A DNA stretch of 48,586 nt, from IMG/VR virus record IMGVR_UViG_3300029915_000040; one strand, given 5' to 3'. Numbering within the stretch: the first letter of the stretch is position 1; every line of letters starts with the position of its first letter. Positions 1 through 24,778 of this stretch are shown one piece after another. A model generated the notes under the pieces. That model had not been told where the DNA came from. It saw only the letters and a list, made by a program, of their open reading frames with translations, and made no database searches. The translations under genes were made by a program, and so were the position numbers. This stretch comes from a virus.

Positions 1-127
1 TAATCGCCGCCGTGGAGGCGTTCGACATGTACACATTGGTCGCATCGCCGTATATCTTTGACGGAGACGAAGGAGGAGCAATAACACCGCTACCAGCCAA
101 CGTTTTGCACGTCACAGAAAACGCTCC
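1..127. repeat. Terminal direct repeat, copy 1 (identical to 48460..48586); circular-closure overlap
   Basis: The first 127 nt (taatcgccgccgtggagg...cagaaaacgctcc) recur verbatim as the last 127 nt. A coding frame runs through the junction. Confidence 0.9.
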
Positions 128-18862: not shown

Positions 18863-18984
18863 TTGGGTTCCGATTGATAGAGCGGTGGAATTCCGAGATG
18901 GTGATGCGTGGTCTTCACCAGAAGATGAATGTCCACCAGTTCAAGTTTGGTCAATTGCCGTGGAACCGGGTATCCGTTGCTCAT
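18838..18984 (-). CDS. Small ORF (48 aa) filling the portal to Mu-F gap
   Basis: Hand-translated as MSNGYPVPRQLTKLELVDIHLLVKTTHHHLGIPPLYQSEPKCSPKSQQ. ATGA overlap with the portal stop; it ends inside the Mu-F start region. It is below the track cutoff. Confidence 0.3.
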   Translation of the reverse strand: MSNGYPVPRQLTKLELVDIHLLVKTTHHHLGIPPLYQSEPKCSPKSQQ

Positions 18985-20465
18985 TCTTTTCCATCCTCTA
19001 ACTGCTTTGGTTCTTCTTCCGCAGGCGATTCAATTACCTTGTCTATGTCAAGGCCGGTGTATCCCGACTCCGGATCACGCGCCAGCTTCTCGCGCTCTTC
19101 CTGTGGGTCGATCACGCCTCTATCAATCAGGTTTCCAGCCCGCGTGCTGTCGTTCATGCGGATGGTCGAAAGCTGCTCTTCCGTCATCTGATAGAGCGGA
19201 TTGAACGTAATACCGATTTCGGGATCGATTGATCCGTACAACGATAGCTGGACGATCTTCAGAATCGTTTCGATGGGGTTGCGGGCATGGGCCTCTTGGT
19301 TCGCTCGAATCCAGTCCCTCCACGCGCCCATCTCGCCCTCGGCCACATTGCCGAATCCAGATGGGGATACGCCGGTCATAATCACGGACGGCTCCCTGCT
19401 GGCGGTACACATCTGCTCCTGAGCCTGTGCCTGAAGCTCATGCAGGCCACCCAGGGGAACGGCAAGCTGCTCCAGTTCCTCGCGGTCCTTGTCTAGCACC
19501 ATGACGCCCTTATTGCTGCGCGTAGCCGTAAACAGCTTGATACGGGCGAACAGGCCAGTACCGTCATCGCCTCCCGTAAGCACCTGGTCCATGGCCGTCT
19601 TGAGGCTAAGGATTGAAAAGTTGTTGATGAGGTCTGAAACGCTCTGCCTGGTGCGCAGCCAGTTGTTAACATACGGCTCGACAAGCTGCGAGAGGCTGAT
19701 ACCGCTGAAATTGAACGCTGGCTTGAAGATGTCAGGCACAGGCCGCGTGACAATCCGAAGCATCCTGGTGGCGTCCCAACGCTGGCCCATGACCCACCAG
19801 CCGGACGGGTTATAGAAGTCCTTGCGCGACGGGTCCAGCGCGTTGTACATGAGGGGCGTAGTCCAGATCGGCTCGACGTTCTTGAATCCGTTCAAGCTGT
19901 CTTTCTTGATGGTCTTTGGGCTGATAGATAGCGGTACTTGTATATCCGCGCCATTGATATTGATGAGGATTTGCCCTGTTCCGTAGAAAGCATCGTCCTC
20001 GATAGCCTTGCGGATTAGCGCCTGAATATCCAGTTCGCGGAACGCCTGCTCCAGTTCGGTGATCTTGTCTTTGGTCGCTTCGCCTGCTGTCTCGCTGCTG
20101 GTGAACTCGATCCACTCCCGCGTCATCTCATTTGCCAGCGCCGCCGCCATGTTGCGGTATTCGACTCGCAGAGCCAACAGCGCTAGGTACGGATAGCCGG
20201 GGAAGCCCTCGACATTGCTGTAGGCGTAGAGTTGAGAGCCAAACTCGGCCCCGGGCATGGCATCCATTGCCAGCTTCACATCGCTCTGGACCTGTGCCTT
20301 TACGCCGGCCGGCACCACGCCAGGCAGGATGTCAGGAGGCCTAATCGGGAACTGTGGGCGGGGTACTTCCTCCATCGCCTTGTAGAGAGCCGCGCGGATA
20401 CCGGCACTCGTTGGAATCGCTTTCGCTGGACGCCCTGCGTTTTCTCGTTTTCCACCGCTCGGCAT
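18981..20465 (-). CDS. Portal protein (DUF1073-type)
   Basis: Trimmed to the ATG at 20465 (MPSGGKRENAGRP...), preceded by AAGGAAA. It lies downstream of terL. A TTG at 20498 is an alternative start. Confidence 0.7.
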   Translation of the reverse strand: MPSGGKRENAGRPAKAIPTSAGIRAALYKAMEEVPRPQFPIRPPDILPGVVPAGVKAQVQSDVKLAMDAMPGAEFGSQLYAYSNVEGFPGYPYLALLALRVEYRNMAAALANEMTREWIEFTSSETAGEATKDKITELEQAFRELDIQALIRKAIEDDAFYGTGQILININGADIQVPLSISPKTIKKDSLNGFKNVEPIWTTPLMYNALDPSRKDFYNPSGWWVMGQRWDATRMLRIVTRPVPDIFKPAFNFSGISLSQLVEPYVNNWLRTRQSVSDLINNFSILSLKTAMDQVLTGGDDGTGLFARIKLFTATRSNKGVMVLDKDREELEQLAVPLGGLHELQAQAQEQMCTASREPSVIMTGVSPSGFGNVAEGEMGAWRDWIRANQEAHARNPIETILKIVQLSLYGSIDPEIGITFNPLYQMTEEQLSTIRMNDSTRAGNLIDRGVIDPQEEREKLARDPESGYTGLDIDKVIESPAEEEPKQLEDGKE

Positions 20466-20494
20466 TTTGATTTCCTTTGATTTCCTGCAACTAT

Positions 20495-20731
20495 TCAAAC
20501 TACCACATTGTACCGAGTATGTACCAGTTCCCGCATCTCCTCCCGCGTAAAGTAGCCGTCTGCGAAAAAATCTCCCATCTTTGTCCAGCCGTTGCGGTAG
20601 TCAAACTGTGATGCACCGCGCCAAGAGGGGAAGCTGCTGCGCAGGCCGTCCCGCAGCGCAAGTTGGCTCTTTGTGTACATGATCGGTTTGGCCTCGGCAA
20701 TTATTTCCTCTTCAGACCTGCGCTTTCTCAT
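20495..20731 (-). CDS. Hypothetical protein (78 aa)
   Basis: Its ATG directly follows the terL stop (TAAATG). The sequence is protein-like. Confidence 0.5.
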   Translation of the reverse strand: MRKRRSEEEIIAEAKPIMYTKSQLALRDGLRSSFPSWRGASQFDYRNGWTKMGDFFADGYFTREEMRELVHTRYNVVV

Positions 20732-23128
20732 TTACCCCCTCATTGCCATCTTCAGTACCGCGTCAGAAATATTGAGCCGGGACGTAGTGGGTGCTGCAAA
20801 AGCCATCACGAACGCATCAGCGCAATTTTTTACCAGCACTCCGTTTGCATAGTAAGCGTTATGTCGATCGAGTGTCAGGTTGTATACGGTTGCGATTATG
20901 CGCGATTGCAGAGCATTTCCTGGAGCAGAATGCGTGAATATTCCCTCTTCTCGGTTTTGGATGTCTAAACATGGTTCCACAGTTCCTGCACTCCGACTCG
21001 CAAGCGATTTTTGCTTTTGAGCTTTGGATAGCGGTTCCGCATGTGCGAGAGCAGGTCTTCGATCCTCTTGGATTTCGAGAAAGAAATGATTTTCCGCACA
21101 CGATGCACACATACTCCGTATATGGCAGACCGACTGCGACACTTCTCCCGTGTTGGCTATGCCATTCGCGTCCTTTTTCGCTGGCGTGCCAAGCCTTTGC
21201 GGCCTCTTTCGCCAACTCAAGAGATTTAGAATTTTGAACGCGATATTCTTCCGACTTGAATCGCTCCCGCATGTGCATACGGGCGTGCTCAGAAAATGGG
21301 ATGCACTCAAGGTTTTCAATCTCGTTATTGCGCCAATTGCCGTCGATGTGATGGATTGTATGGCCGTCAGGAATCTTGCCGTAATGGTCAGACCATACCC
21401 GCCGGTGTAAAAGTCGCTCATCGCCAGCGTACTTCCCGCCGTGCCTGCCTGAGCAATAGTATCGACCCGTGTTGAGAACTGCGAACACTTCGCCGCGATA
21501 AACAACTCGTTCATTATCTGCCACGTGTGCCTCCATTTATGATACGACTCTAGTATATCACATGATGAAAGCATCCGCAGTTCGCACCATCCGCGATTCC
21601 AAGTGAAAATCTTATGTGTCGGTGTCCCTGTTAGTCCGAAAGCCGAAATTACCTCCGCTTGATTTACGTGACGAACTATGATCCTAGCTGCACCCATTGG
21701 CGTAATCACTTCATCGCCTACAGATAGATTTTCGATTGGGACTGACCCGCGTGGAGTTTCAACAACGGTTCCCGCAACGAAGCAATTTGGGCTGGGCACT
21801 GGTCCACCAGGCCGCGTGCTCTTCGCCAGGTCCTCTTTGCTCTCCACCTTGACGCGCCCATTGCGGTCAAAGTCCCGCTTTGGGGTGGAAAGCTCTGTCT
21901 CCAGCTTCTCCAGATGCGGCATATCGCTTGAAATCGAGATAAGTTCATCGTCCTTGAACTTCTCACCCCGGTTGATTGCGTTGTACGTGTTGCGGAAGCG
22001 GTCGGCGATATTCCACCACGTTTGGGCCTTGAGATTGGCGAAGAAGTCCTTGTTTTTGATCTTGTCCTGCCGGTCGCTCACGTAGTACTCCTCGGGCCGC
22101 TCGACTGCCGCGCCCGCATTGAACTTGGCGTAGTTGATTCGCAGATGCTTGTCCCGCACCTGGTTCAACTCGTCAAACTTCGCACCCGCGCTTGCCCCCA
22201 CCCCGATGCAGTCGTAGCGTATCTCTGCCGCCCTCTCAGAGGCATTCAGGAACGTCCGAGAGCAGGACTTGAGCAGTTCATCTTCCTTCGCCCGCCACTC
22301 CTCGCACCAGAGTGCCACACTGCCATGGGCATAGACATTCGCGCAAGCATCCTCACCGTCGTCTGCCACATCAAAGCCGATGATCCTCCGTCCAGCAGCC
22401 TCAAAGCCAAGTTTTAGATGCGCATCGATAGCGGCCTCAATCCAACTGCGCTTGATGACCGCGCCCTCTGTATCCTCTTTGGGGTTGCCCAGGTAGATGT
22501 GCTGGTAATCCTCCTCGGACTCAGCTTTGCACGCAGCGATGACTTCAAGCATAGTCTTTGAAAGAAAAGGGTTCTCTGGATAGTTGATTTTTCTAACCAG
22601 TGTTCTTGGCGGTGGATTTAACACGAACTTTTGATAGACAAAATCCGTTGCATACCGGGGATTGAAAACAATAAATATACGCGATCCTTCTTCGCGGATG
22701 GTTGGTTCCAGAATCTCCCATTGATCCTTTGTTAAGTCTTCCGCCTCTTCAACCCAAAGTATGTCTATTCCCGATATGCCCTTTATTTCCTTCAAATTCC
22801 GCTGAATACCGAGAAAACTAAAGTATGAGCCAGTCGTTTTATGCTCAATGGTGTTCTCGGTGATATTGAATTCATCTTGGATGCCAGCGCGGTAAATGCA
22901 CTCCTCTATGACGGTTTTGACAGAATCGGTGATTCTATTCTGAAACTGCCTCACGCAGAGAAAACGAACCTTAAACTGAGAGCTTAGGAACACGCAGAAA
23001 GCGGCAGTATGATAGGTTTTGGATGATCCGCGACCGCCATACAAAACATGGTTTCTAATGCCTGGAGTCTCGTAAAATCCCCTTAGATTTGGATTAAGCA
23101 GACTCATAACGGCTCCAGGTATATCCAT
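20732..23128 (-). CDS. terL: Terminase large subunit (PBSX/Terminase_3-like) interrupted by a 320-aa intein
   Basis: Walker A motif YGGRGSSKT, Walker B-like motif ILWVEEAE, nuclease-domain motif GFDVADDG. After splicing the predicted junction reads SPN-CADAFVMAF. Confidence 0.85.
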   Translation of the reverse strand: MDIPGAVMSLLNPNLRGFYETPGIRNHVLYGGRGSSKTYHTAAFCVFLSSQFKVRFLCVRQFQNRITDSVKTVIEECIYRAGIQDEFNITENTIEHKTTGSYFSFLGIQRNLKEIKGISGIDILWVEEAEDLTKDQWEILEPTIREEGSRIFIVFNPRYATDFVYQKFVLNPPPRTLVRKINYPENPFLSKTMLEVIAACKAESEEDYQHIYLGNPKEDTEGAVIKRSWIEAAIDAHLKLGFEAAGRRIIGFDVADDGEDACANVYAHGSVALWCEEWRAKEDELLKSCSRTFLNASERAAEIRYDCIGVGASAGAKFDELNQVRDKHLRINYAKFNAGAAVERPEEYYVSDRQDKIKNKDFFANLKAQTWWNIADRFRNTYNAINRGEKFKDDELISISSDMPHLEKLETELSTPKRDFDRNGRVKVESKEDLAKSTRPGGPVPSPNCFVAGTVVETPRGSVPIENLSVGDEVITPMGAARIIVRHVNQAEVISAFGLTGTPTHKIFTWNRGWCELRMLSSCDILESYHKWRHTWQIMNELFIAAKCSQFSTRVDTIAQAGTAGSTLAMSDFYTGGYGLTITARFLTAIQSITSTAIGAITRLKTLSASHFLSTPVCTCGSDSSRKNIAFKILNLLSWRKRPQRLGTPAKKDANGIANTGEVSQSVCHIRSMCASCAENHFFLEIQEDRRPALAHAEPLSKAQKQKSLASRSAGTVEPCLDIQNREEGIFTHSAPGNALQSRIIATVYNLTLDRHNAYYANGVLVKNCADAFVMAFAAPTTSRLNISDAVLKMAMRG
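20825..21784 (-). mobile_element. Intein (Hint domain) within terL
   Basis: Starts CFVAGTVVETPRGSVPIENLSVGDEV immediately after SPN. Block B is LTGTPTHKIF. It ends VYNLTLDRHNAYYANGVLVKN, followed by a +1 Cys. Confidence 0.8.
20859..21536 (-). CDS. HNH homing endonuclease, encoded inside the intein in a different reading frame
   Basis: 225-aa ORF with its own ATG. HNH motif: HRRVWSDHYGKIPDGHTIHHIDGNWRNNEIENLECIPFSEHARMH. The C-terminus has repeated CxxC...FCSxxC zinc-finger-like units. The start coordinate is 2 mod 3, against 1 mod 3 for terL. Confidence 0.8.
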   Translation of the reverse strand: MEAHVADNERVVYRGEVFAVLNTGRYYCSGRHGGKYAGDERLLHRRVWSDHYGKIPDGHTIHHIDGNWRNNEIENLECIPFSEHARMHMRERFKSEEYRVQNSKSLELAKEAAKAWHASEKGREWHSQHGRSVAVGLPYTEYVCIVCGKSFLSRNPRGSKTCSRTCGTAIQSSKAKIACESECRNCGTMFRHPKPRRGNIHAFCSRKCSAIAHNRNRIQPDTRST

Positions 23129-23870
23129 ATGATTTCTGATGTTTTCCCACTAGCGCCATCCATACGCCGGTCCTTGTTGCCTTGGGGTACCCGTTTACAT
23201 TAAGCCATTTTGCAGCCTCGGTTATGGAAGCGAATTCGCTTCCCGTCTCGGCACAAACAACCCTGCATTTTGGCTGCGCCTCTGACATATTTATCCGAGC
23301 CTGGCCTGAACGTTTCTTACCTCTGTGCCATGAAGCTGTCTTTTCAATTGCAATGGAATCTTTGTGCAATCCGATATGTGATATGCGCATCTTTTGACGC
23401 GTCTCTAGGGTGTGATTTTGACCCATCTTTCTCGCGGATACCGCTGCACAGAATTCTTTAGACCGCTTTTGGCCACGCAACAAGGCTGTTCTTTTTTCGA
23501 TGACCTCAGCGGACTGCTTTCTTTGGAAATGGGCTTTATGTAGTCTTTCTTTCGTCTCTTCTGTGTGTCTATAGCCGGATATACCCTCCCCCCCAGACGT
23601 AAAGTTGCATAACGGGGATAGACGGGAGATCGTCTCAACTTCGATCTTAAAGGCATCCTCTTCTGTTAAATTATCAGCTATTTTCTCTGGTACAAACCCA
23701 TGCTTCTTGGATATGCGACTCCACAAAGAGTTGCGTCCCGTGGAGCAATTCATCCTTTTCCCTCTCCCTTTTCCGACATAGAATATTTCCCCTGTGTCGG
23801 CCCGACGATGGACGTACACATAAAAATCTGTAGGCAGGAGTGGAGTGAGGATAGGGGTAGCTGTACTCAT
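23094..23870 (-). CDS. Free-standing GIY-YIG homing endonuclease (NUMOD3-like repeats plus a C-terminal DNA-binding module)
   Basis: Motifs FYVYVHRRADTGEIFYVGKGRGKR...E, HTEETKERL and HTLETRQKM. C-terminal sequence FASITEAAKWL...YGYTW. It overlaps the terL start by 35 nt. Confidence 0.8.
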   Translation of the reverse strand: MSTATPILTPLLPTDFYVYVHRRADTGEIFYVGKGRGKRMNCSTGRNSLWSRISKKHGFVPEKIADNLTEEDAFKIEVETISRLSPLCNFTSGGEGISGYRHTEETKERLHKAHFQRKQSAEVIEKRTALLRGQKRSKEFCAAVSARKMGQNHTLETRQKMRISHIGLHKDSIAIEKTASWHRGKKRSGQARINMSEAQPKCRVVCAETGSEFASITEAAKWLNVNGYPKATRTGVWMALVGKHQKSYGYTWSRYESA

Positions 23871-24232: not shown

Positions 24233-24778
24233 CTACGGTTTCTTGGCAGCGTCCGCGTAGAAGTCGCTCAGCGTGCGCACCTGGATCGGCCCGCCATCCT
24301 TGCCGGTCACTTCGGTGCGATCAGTGAACAGCTTCAGGTACTTGCCCAGCAATTCAAGGCTTGCCCGCTTATCGGTCAATTTGTACTTCTTCAGCAGGCC
24401 GTATGCGTGCTTCTGATCTCCTGTGCCTTCAAACAGTTCCACGAATTCAAAGCCTGCAACCGCCATAGCCGTTTCGTCGTCAAGCTCATGCAGTTGCTTC
24501 GGACTTCCGTCCGATTCAAACAGTTTGCGCGGATCAAAAAATGCCAGCTTTGCGATCTCTCCAAGCACTCTTTCTGCGCTAATCTCTAGTTTCGTGAACA
24601 CTTTGCCCGTTTTCTTGGCAATCTCTGCACGGACCTTAGAATTACTTAGAAGCTGCGCTCCCCAACTATCAGCTCCCTTTTCGCTGTAACCTGCTTTAAT
24701 TGCCGCACTTGTAGCATTCAGGCTCACACAATACTCCGCCACAAATCGTGCTTGCCGTGCTGTGAGACCTTCAGCCAT
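24233..24778 (-). CDS. terS: Terminase small subunit (Terminase_2-like)
   Basis: 181-aa ORF. The N-terminus (LTARQARFVAEYCVSLNATSAAIKAGYSEKGADSWGAQLLSNSKV) is the typical terS HTH region. Confidence 0.8.
   Translation of the reverse strand: MAEGLTARQARFVAEYCVSLNATSAAIKAGYSEKGADSWGAQLLSNSKVRAEIAKKTGKVFTKLEISAERVLGEIAKLAFFDPRKLFESDGSPKQLHELDDETAMAVAGFEFVELFEGTGDQKHAYGLLKKYKLTDKRASLELLGKYLKLFTDRTEVTGKDGGPIQVRTLSDFYADAAKKP

Follow-up and report, generated by a model that had tools for sequence, protein, structure and literature searches.

A viral terL intein that very probably carries its HNH_3 homing endonuclease as a separate, overprinted gene

Several arrangements are known in which the endonuclease of a mobile protein insertion lies outside the inserted polypeptide. 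Gosselin et al. (2025; 10.1101/2025.01.02.630785) described inteins with the endonuclease in a separate frame, among them actinophage TerL inteins that carry an endonuclease VII-like gene 'in reading frame 3'; the authors call this last arrangement previously unreported and list HNH endonucleases only as in-frame. Split inteins with a free-standing endonuclease gene between the halves, of GIY-YIG and Vsr-like types, were reported by Dassa et al. (2009; PMC2677866), where an HNH version was predicted. Within a phage DNA methylase, the ShiLan insertion holds a 'hidden' out-of-frame HNH (Arsenault et al. 2025; PMC11855218). Inteins that contain LAGLIDADG or VSR-like endonuclease genes in antisense orientation have also been reported (Gorbalenya 1998; Gogarten 2002). 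Here we analyze the large terminase gene (terL) of IMG/VR virus record IMGVR_UViG_3300029915_000040, whose whole 48,586-nt stretch is called the window. We conclude that this terL gene very probably carries a mobile intein whose homing endonuclease is not an intein domain: it would be a separate gene overprinted between the Hint lobes.

The architecture class is known, so that the original prediction of an arrangement new in kind is superseded by the 2025 preprint. New here are the endonuclease family, the insertion site, a very broad distribution and the existence of split-intein siblings; full-text literature searches found no report of the HNH_3 family nested in terL inteins. Compared loci are given L-numbers, database proteins P-numbers, and A4 denotes an alignment of 33 representative TerL-intein proteins. 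The features of the terL locus are as follows (ORF, open reading frame; AF2, AlphaFold2; HMM, hidden Markov model; aa, amino acids).

20732..23128, minus strand: terL precursor ORF (N-extein, intein and C-extein in one frame), 798 aa plus stop; ORF listing and translation
21785..23128, minus strand: N-extein, 448 aa, with the ATPase domain and the larger part of the nuclease domain, up to ...PVPSPN; runs on into the C-extein in intein-less L084-L099
20825..21784, minus strand: class-1 intein, 320 aa, Cys1...Asn320; blocks A, B and F/G, bounds from mismatches against L004
21539..21784, minus strand: Hint N-terminal lobe, intein residues 1-82; AF2, Foldseek, family HMM
20900..21538, minus strand: intein-frame reading of the HNH gene, residues about 83-295, a stop-free linker; AF2, substitution pattern
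20825..20899, minus strand: Hint C-terminal blocks F/G, intein residues 296-320; AF2 beta strands, motif conservation
20735..20824, minus strand: C-extein, 30 aa, CADAFVMAF..., completing the nuclease motif SPN-x-ADA; intein-less alleles
20859..21536, minus strand: nested HNH_3 homing-endonuclease gene with two CxxC...CxxxC zinc ribbons, 225 aa plus stop; Pfam, PHROG, AF2
21522..21536, minus strand: candidate HNH initiation region (ATG 21536-21534, GGAGG 21534-21530, 5-nt spacer, GTG 21524-21522); sequence

The terL product matches Terminase_3 in Pfam (E 1.2e-37) and the terminase large subunit family in PHROG (E 2e-64), with the Walker A motif YGGRGSSKT at residues 30-38. Block A of the intein starts at Cys449 of the precursor (CFVAGT; Pfam Hint_2, E 3.6e-10) and block B reads GLTGTPTH; the N-terminal lobe matches the family HMM with E 3.9e-30. 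The intein ends with ...VYNLTLDRHNAYYANGVLVKN, followed by the +1 Cys. Between the two lobes the terL frame reads ~210 residues without a recognisable family. The predicted spliced TerL has 478 aa and the junction SPN-C-ADAF. The intein coordinates predicted earlier (20825-21784) proved exact, and the motifs named with them (Walker A, CFVAGT, TGTPTH, the +1 Cys and the completion of SPN-ADA) are all present.

The insertion point could be located with intein-less alleles. In L084-L099 (71-93% aa identity, tblastn) the protein reads ...PVPSPN-L/C-ADAFVMAF, with SPNLADAFVMAF or SPNCADAFVMAF at the site; as these alleles are continuous through SPN-L/C-ADAF, the predicted insertion point is confirmed. 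The empty site of L097 consists of ...CCCAGCCCAAAC directly followed by CTTGCCGATGCG...; its differences from the window are the final base of the N-extein, the Leu codon and a single base further downstream. We are confident that a mobile class-1 intein occupies the last catalytic motif of the TerL nuclease domain. In three intein-less alleles (L084, L085 and L096) the +1 codon is TGC (Cys) instead of a Leu codon, and the flanks are near-identical to those of the window (3-4 differences per 45 nt on each side). Cys at this position may be the footprint of precise intein loss, or may mark a pre-adapted or immune allele.

The HNH ORF (21536 to 20859) is complete, with its own ATG and zinc-finger repeats as had been predicted. 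It is offset by 2 nt from terL (23128-21536 = 1592 = 3k+2), i.e. it lies in the −1 frame relative to terL, and with its own start it is a nested out-of-frame gene rather than an in-frame domain. The translated ORF matches HNH_3 in Pfam (E 2.6e-16; 59.4 bits with a cut-off of 24.8) and HNH endonuclease in PHROG (E 1.7e-29); HMM searches had been proposed for both translations, and both gave the anticipated families. In an alignment of 39 HNH sequences H62, H63, N75, H84, C144 and C162 are invariant, while N71, H88, C147, C166, C183, C186 and C204 are at least 90% conserved. A TAA codon directly upstream of the ATG closes the HNH frame. The HNH stop is situated 13 residues upstream of the intein end, with about 9-13 codons shared with the block F region; the overlap with block F, put at ~15 codons in the original prediction, comes to about 9-10.

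Fold predictions distinguish the two readings of the same DNA. The HNH frame is modeled by AF2 with a mean pLDDT (predicted local distance difference test) of 88.8, as a beta-hairpin, an HNH core, a helical bundle and two zinc ribbons. In the intein frame, pLDDT is 80-93 in the Hint N lobe (residues ~1-82; 85-93 over residues 1-80) and 70-89 in the C-terminal blocks (residues ~291-320), which include beta strands. The Hint lobes match solved inteins (gp41-1, DnaB and RecA, as well as mini-inteins) and a bacterial intein-like (BIL) domain with Foldseek probability 1.00. The overprinted part of the intein frame has pLDDT of about 23-35 at residues 171-290 and below 50 over 166-293. In these models, the ~210 overprinted intein residues are a linker without a confident fold.

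The locus is closest to the case of Gosselin et al., with which it shares a contiguous terL intein, a same-strand separate endonuclease ORF between the splicing blocks, an open intein frame and an in-frame reading without recognisable structure. We checked the offset in Gordonia phage Keitabear from that work and found it to be 2 nt as well (1386-514 = 872 = 3k+2). The nucleases differ: that of Keitabear is an Endonuclease_7 (PF02945) protein of 151 aa (E 1.5e-19), while the window encodes HNH_3 with two zinc ribbons in 225 aa. The window protein matches only HNH_3, and BLASTP between the two endonucleases gives E 0.5; membership of the window HNH in the published endonuclease VII family is ruled out by these results. 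The Keitabear intein is inserted in the ATPase domain (C...HN, between LVM and TRWHEDD), the window intein in the SPN-xADA motif of the nuclease domain. Gosselin et al. covered only a few actinophage clusters, whereas the HNH family of the window occurs in many phyla.

Likeness to the fractured genes of Dassa et al. is seen in 21 loci (e.g. L025, L078 and L113) where homologues of the window HNH lie between Hint-N and Hint-C ORFs, the HNH 3′ end overlapping the start of the IntC ORF; the window terL differs in being unfractured, a single through-running ORF. With canonical bifunctional inteins (HNH or LAGLIDADG) the locus shares Hint and endonuclease in one mobile unit and a conserved catalytic site, but here the endonuclease would be a separate polypeptide, offset by 2 nt. 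The ShiLan insertion likewise has an HNH overprinted on a segment open in the frame of the host gene, with a proposed GTG start; it has no detectable Hint or other splicing domain and is thought to be retained in the protein, whereas the window HNH is flanked by Hint lobes. The antisense endonucleases are also encoded within intein DNA and outside the intein polypeptide; they differ in strand, being opposite to the intein, and in nuclease family.

Comparison of close relatives gave evidence of transfer. The intein of L004 (IMG/VR) is 99.4% identical to that of the window (3 mismatches in 960 nt), while the exteins of the two loci have only 73% (N) and 59% (C) aa identity. The break in identity lies 7 nt upstream of the Cys1 codon on one side and 6 nt downstream of the Asn codon on the other. 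The closest exteins to those of the window are intein-free (L097, 92.5%; L096, 88.5%; L084, 81%) and read SPN-L-ADAF or SPN-C-ADAF. The same contrast was found in five other groups, with exteins 8-20% diverged and inteins 0-2%. Among close relatives the HNH is present in six intein-bearing loci and there co-occurs only with the intein; no full HNH homologue was detected in the compared flanks of intein-less close relatives, where L092 had a weak partial antisense match. A near-identical intein in diverged exteins indicates recent homing of the window intein together with the nested HNH gene.

To collect relatives, the HNH protein was compared with GenBank phages by tblastn and four HNH proteins were used to build a profile. 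The first named carriers were Clostridium phage phiCDHM19, Tetrasphaera phage TJE1 and Acinetobacter phage Highwayman, each with the HNH inside the annotated terL at an offset of 2 nt. The profile search of IMG/VR detected 388 relatives, of which 80 were kept; with three phage records and the window they make 84 loci. Prokaryotic genome contigs contributed 42 near full-length loci, giving 126 in total. The HNH is nested at the same offset in 89 of these and in another frame in 3; 21 are split, 11 have no Hint nearby and 2 are partial at contig ends. None of the 126 related loci has the HNH in frame. Of the 84 viral and phage loci, 66 share the offset of the window, 3 have the other offset, 15 lack a through-running ORF and none is in frame; the 42 genome-contig loci replicate this independently, with 23 contiguous loci of the same offset, 13 split, 4 free, 2 partial and none in frame. 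The ORF enclosing the HNH in the 66 same-offset loci has 385-913 codons (shorter at contig ends).

The 69 nested viral and phage loci are uniform in layout. Hint block A (Cys1; HMM E 1e-18 to 1e-32) precedes the HNH start by ~80-90 residues in all 69, and in all 69 block F/G directly follows the HNH stop, which lies a median of 20 residues before the intein end. The exteins form the TerL nuclease motif ...(D/N)H-C(I)DAxRY in 69 of 69 loci, and the +1 residue is Cys in 66. The terminases of representatives belong to Terminase_3 (15), Terminase_6N (15), GpA (1) and T7-type (2) families. Labels of the genome contigs include Bacteroidota, Chloroflexota, Patescibacteria, Corynebacterium, Planctomycetota, Nitrospiraceae, Pseudomonadota and three archaeal metagenome-assembled genomes; one same-offset locus is on a complete Corynebacterium chromosome. 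The archaeal-binned contigs (L110, Woesearchaeota; L124, Thermoplasmatales; L130, Thorarchaeota) have the contiguous out-of-frame layout and represent either archaeal viruses or binning errors.

The split loci use the same terL site and comprise 8 of the 15 IMG/VR loci that are not run through and 13 genome loci:

Split, IMG/VR: L025, L041, L048, L049, L052, L056, L061, L078
Split, genome contigs: L112-L115, L120, L121, L123, L127, L136, L138, L143, L147, L150

In this layout an ORF for TerL-N and Hint-N ends in a stop and is followed by the HNH gene and then by a Hint-C ORF, e.g. MKVKSITYAGKADVYNMEVEDTHSFVIQGGVIAHN followed by Cys and TerL-C, which starts within the HNH 3′ end. Isolates with split inteins include Peptococcus simiae (L113) and Limosilactobacillus gastricus. 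In L127 a single stop separates the halves; this locus may be a pseudogene or contain a sequencing error. The HNHs of split L025 and of contiguous other-frame L031 and L032 are more than 50% identical. The other-frame loci (L031, L032 and L064) have no stops, against 11-17 expected (P 1e-7 to 3e-10), and their Hint blocks resemble the split-intein lineage, which suggests that a split intein was re-joined or that these loci arose separately.

Searched with an HNH profile, 1.84 billion representative proteins yielded 1317 clusters at E ≤ 1e-30. Among the top 150 of these clusters, nearly all proteins are 170-310 aa long, and none has Hint, HNH and Hint in one frame. In one of these proteins, P0138 (545 aa), Hint_2 (259-295) and HNH_3 (376-410) share a frame that ends at the HNH stop; this could reflect a variant with Hint-N fused to HNH or a frameshift in the assembly. 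In Clostridium phage phiCD119 (L107; AY855346) terL is annotated as 'ter2' (778-1746) and 'hypothetical ORF3' (1897-2595), and the HNH match at 1962-2456 is offset by 2 nt from ORF3; most likely the same intein layout is present there, obscured by breaks in sequencing or annotation. One member of alignment A4 also matches LAGLIDADG_3 (E 2e-6), which might reflect a second, canonical intein.

Whether the open terL frame could be due to chance was assessed by counting stop codons. Across the HNH ORF of the window the terL frame has 0 stops, the third frame 15 and each antisense frame 4-6. Synonymous permutation within the HNH ORF left the terL frame open in 7.6% of 20,000 trials. An exact calculation with the codon usage of the window gave P(open) = 0.052 with 2.5 stops expected, and local locus codon usage gave P(open) = 0.011; given the HNH protein, about 2.5-3.7 terL-frame stops are expected. 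The original prediction had put the chance at (61/64)^226, about 2e-5. That value is too small, since in this phase stops arise only from NTA/NTG codons preceding A or G, and it is replaced by P of about 0.01-0.08 given the HNH protein and codon usage. Single-locus shuffling was rejected as proof of selection, being too weak (P 0.05-0.08), and the single-sequence statistic of the window is only suggestive.

The strong evidence comes from the same calculation over many loci. Mean stop counts per HNH gene were as follows.

Nested at the same offset (n = 66): intein frame, 0 observed, 3.95 expected; third frame, 20.6 observed, 20.4 expected
Not run through, free or split (n = 15): intein frame, 5.7 observed, 4.9 expected; third frame, 16.2 observed, 15.7 expected

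The control is well calibrated, as observed and expected numbers in the third frame are nearly equal. Locus by locus, P(open) falls from 0.25 to as little as 7e-8 in phiCDHM19 and 2e-8 in L022, both with ~30% GC. The nested HNHs form 33 clusters at 50% identity, and the product of the most generous P values is ~1e-83. The absence of intein-frame stops against a calibrated expectation across loci shows that this frame is kept open by selection. Selection is thus established by the comparative data and not by the number for the single window; the claim that the intein frame is selected to stay open stands on the stop control, while the (61/64)^226 argument first offered for it does not hold.

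The two frames differ in how they evolve. When close relatives are compared, the overlap shows 1/0/10, 2/2/10, 4/5/17 and 19/15/53 substitutions at HNH codon positions 1/2/3, most of them at position 3. As the third position of HNH codons coincides with the second position of intein-frame codons, each of these position-3 changes replaces an intein-frame residue. By this substitution pattern, the HNH frame is under purifying selection. Faint conservation in the intein frame ('LGT...NG') is a shadow of the HNH motif 'WH..G..WH'. The usual phase is the alternative frame with the fewest chance stops (~4 versus ~20), which accounts for its prevalence: a free-standing HNH gene landing in the loop of a mini-intein would be tolerated at once with a chance of 1-25%, whereas in the other phase the chance of immediate tolerance would be essentially none.

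We propose that ribosomes translating terL would read through the HNH gene in the other frame and produce the 798-aa precursor, the central ~210 residues of which would serve as an unstructured, fast-evolving linker. The Hint lobes (Cys1, TxxH, Asn320 and Cys+1) would then excise the 320-aa intein and ligate the 478-aa TerL. Internal initiation at ATG 21536 or at GGAGG-N5-GTG 21524 would yield a free HNH_3/zinc-ribbon endonuclease of 221-225 aa. This enzyme would cut intein-less terL alleles of co-infecting relatives, and repair would copy the intein with the nested gene into the empty site (homing). Since TerL is essential, a terL-frame stop within the HNH gene would be lethal, which would keep the frame open.

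As regards the candidate start sites, the GTG at 21524 lies four codons into the HNH ORF and would give 221 aa; P0011, a protein of 221 aa that is 99% identical to the window HNH, was called from the GTG on a short contig. The start codon is 32-79 codons (most often 50-75) ahead of the HH motif in 65 of the 66 nested same-offset loci, and the HNH frame is usually closed a few codons upstream of the start. An RNA hairpin predicted at 21580..21521 (minus strand) pairs the HNH ATG and GGAGG with upstream sequence; for a 111-nt stretch the minimum free energy is −32.7 kcal/mol (z = −1.77), and 12 of 200 shuffles are as stable, so that the hairpin is statistically not significant and at best suggestive. 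It resembles the hairpins that sequester ribosome-binding sites of free-standing phage endonuclease genes. A scan of 20600-22000 found no terminator.

Several results weigh against an active overprinted homing endonuclease in an active intein. The top Foldseek match of the HNH model in PDB is I-HmuI (1u3e), but the match is weak (E 0.12; template modeling score 0.16-0.21), and by sequence no solved relative was detected, a profile search of PDB sequences with the HNH giving only a zinc-finger match (E 0.004). The penultimate intein residue (319; 20828..20830) is Lys, not the usual His, and may affect the Asn-cyclisation step. A penultimate His is common but not universal in class-1 inteins; across 69 family members the residue is His in 46, Ser in 14, Lys in 3, Ala in 3 and another in 3. 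For the window taken alone, an open terL frame is not improbable (P 0.01-0.08). Only about half of the nested loci have a Shine-Dalgarno sequence of at least 4 nt ahead of the HNH start, so this census is not decisive for internal initiation. The only promoter-like site in the 20600-22000 scan is at the HNH 3′ end, at chance level.

Four other explanations were considered. An assembly artefact, with two compensating indels disguising an ordinary in-frame HNH intein, is the type of error that one assembled metagenomic sequence alone cannot exclude, and P0138 does carry Hint-N and HNH in one frame. The same offset recurs, however, in 89 loci of independent projects, including the phiCDHM19, TJE1 and Highwayman isolates and the Corynebacterium chromosome; moreover, with a stop before the HNH start and the HNH stop within block F, more than two indels would be needed. 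The probability of this error is practically negligible. A programmed −1 ribosomal frameshift, producing a Hint-N-HNH fusion and no free HNH, would agree with the position of the HNH in the −1 frame of terL and with the fusion ORF of P0138. It is at odds with the stop directly upstream of the HNH start in the window (a few codons upstream in most relatives) and with the conservation of HNH start codons, and the frameshifted product would lack Hint-C. In-phase slippery heptamers were detected in 14 of 66 loci at positions that are not conserved, and none in the window; such frameshifting seems highly improbable. Apart from the four, an explanation at the RNA level, such as a group I intron, was set aside, since at every locus the insert is flanked by Hint blocks that are in the terL frame.

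Endonuclease loss is common among inteins, and the HNH might be a decaying relic inside a mini-intein with a junk linker, inherited only vertically. The excess of substitutions at position 3, as a sign of purifying selection on the HNH frame, the invariance of catalytic and zinc ligands and the high pLDDT of the model all speak for a maintained protein, and near-identical inteins in diverged exteins, with closer exteins intein-free, do not fit vertical inheritance; we regard decay as very improbable. About equally unlikely, and by a shade the most credible of the four, is that the nested HNH acts mainly as a packaging cofactor, like the HNH proteins encoded beside terminase genes of cos phages. 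Zinc-ribbon HNH genes beside terminase genes are common (PMC3592412), and some free-standing homologues are located between terL and portal genes. Yet phages with close intein-less terL genes have no HNH homologue in the compared flanks, the HNH accompanies the intein in four unrelated terminase families, and the transfer footprint ends exactly at the intein boundaries. The preferred explanation thus remains a mobile terL intein with a separate, overprinted endonuclease gene.

The terL gene has these neighbours in the window:

24233..24778: TerS gene
23094..23870, minus strand: GIY-YIG-like homing endonuclease gene, 258 aa, NUMOD3 motif; PHROG 'homing endonuclease', E 6e-18
18981..20498: portal gene

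The GIY-YIG/NUMOD3 gene, flanked by terS and terL, shares 35 nt with the start of terL. No homologue was detected by tblastn in the compared DNA of L004 or of intein-less relatives, and the gene looks like a second, independent mobile element of the terminase locus. An ORF of 78 aa (20495..20731, minus strand) lies between terL and the portal gene, with its ATG abutting the terL stop (TAAATG), and has no match in Pfam or PHROG. Close relatives of the spliced TerL were sought in prokaryotic genome contigs and none were found; the best DNA matches in the phage database, to Edwardsiella and Pseudomonas phages, are only ~65% identical.

The original prediction placed the arrangement between a mini-intein invaded by a free-standing gene, a bifunctional intein and a fractured gene. 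Its kinship with the split 'fractured gene' is borne out by the 21 split loci; the transitional character is not, as overprinting, with 33 HNH clusters at 50% identity, four Pfam terminase families, and phages or prophages ascribed to many bacterial phyla and to archaeal metagenome-assembled genomes, is the dominant, long-lived state. On balance we incline to a broader view: bacterial, and probably archaeal, viruses would harbour a very large and old family of terminase inteins for which overprinting is the preferred and stable design. In this family the endonuclease would never be in frame, and the element would have switched repeatedly between contiguous and split forms.

The overprinted architecture is missed because annotation pipelines permit one frame per locus: in phiCDHM19, TJE1 and Highwayman a single 'terminase large subunit' is annotated over the region. 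Such inteins would be mistaken for decaying inteins or mini-inteins, whereas the loci compared here show the layout to be common, mobile and conserved. They present a clean natural case of dual coding, with one frame under ordinary purifying selection and the other mainly avoiding stops, and the cost is measurable, at ~4 stops avoided per gene and 10-11 in AT-rich phages. Overprinted, split and free versions of one HNH at one terL site bear on endonuclease acquisition and on the origin of split inteins; the split relatives may supply trans-splicing pairs, and the HNH proteins site-specific nucleases. If the broader view is true, the family would offer a pool of new natural split inteins and a living series in which two models of intein evolution, gene breaking and 'splicing first, endonuclease invades later', could be tested, and it would mean that selection favours expression of the endonuclease uncoupled from that of a highly expressed host protein.

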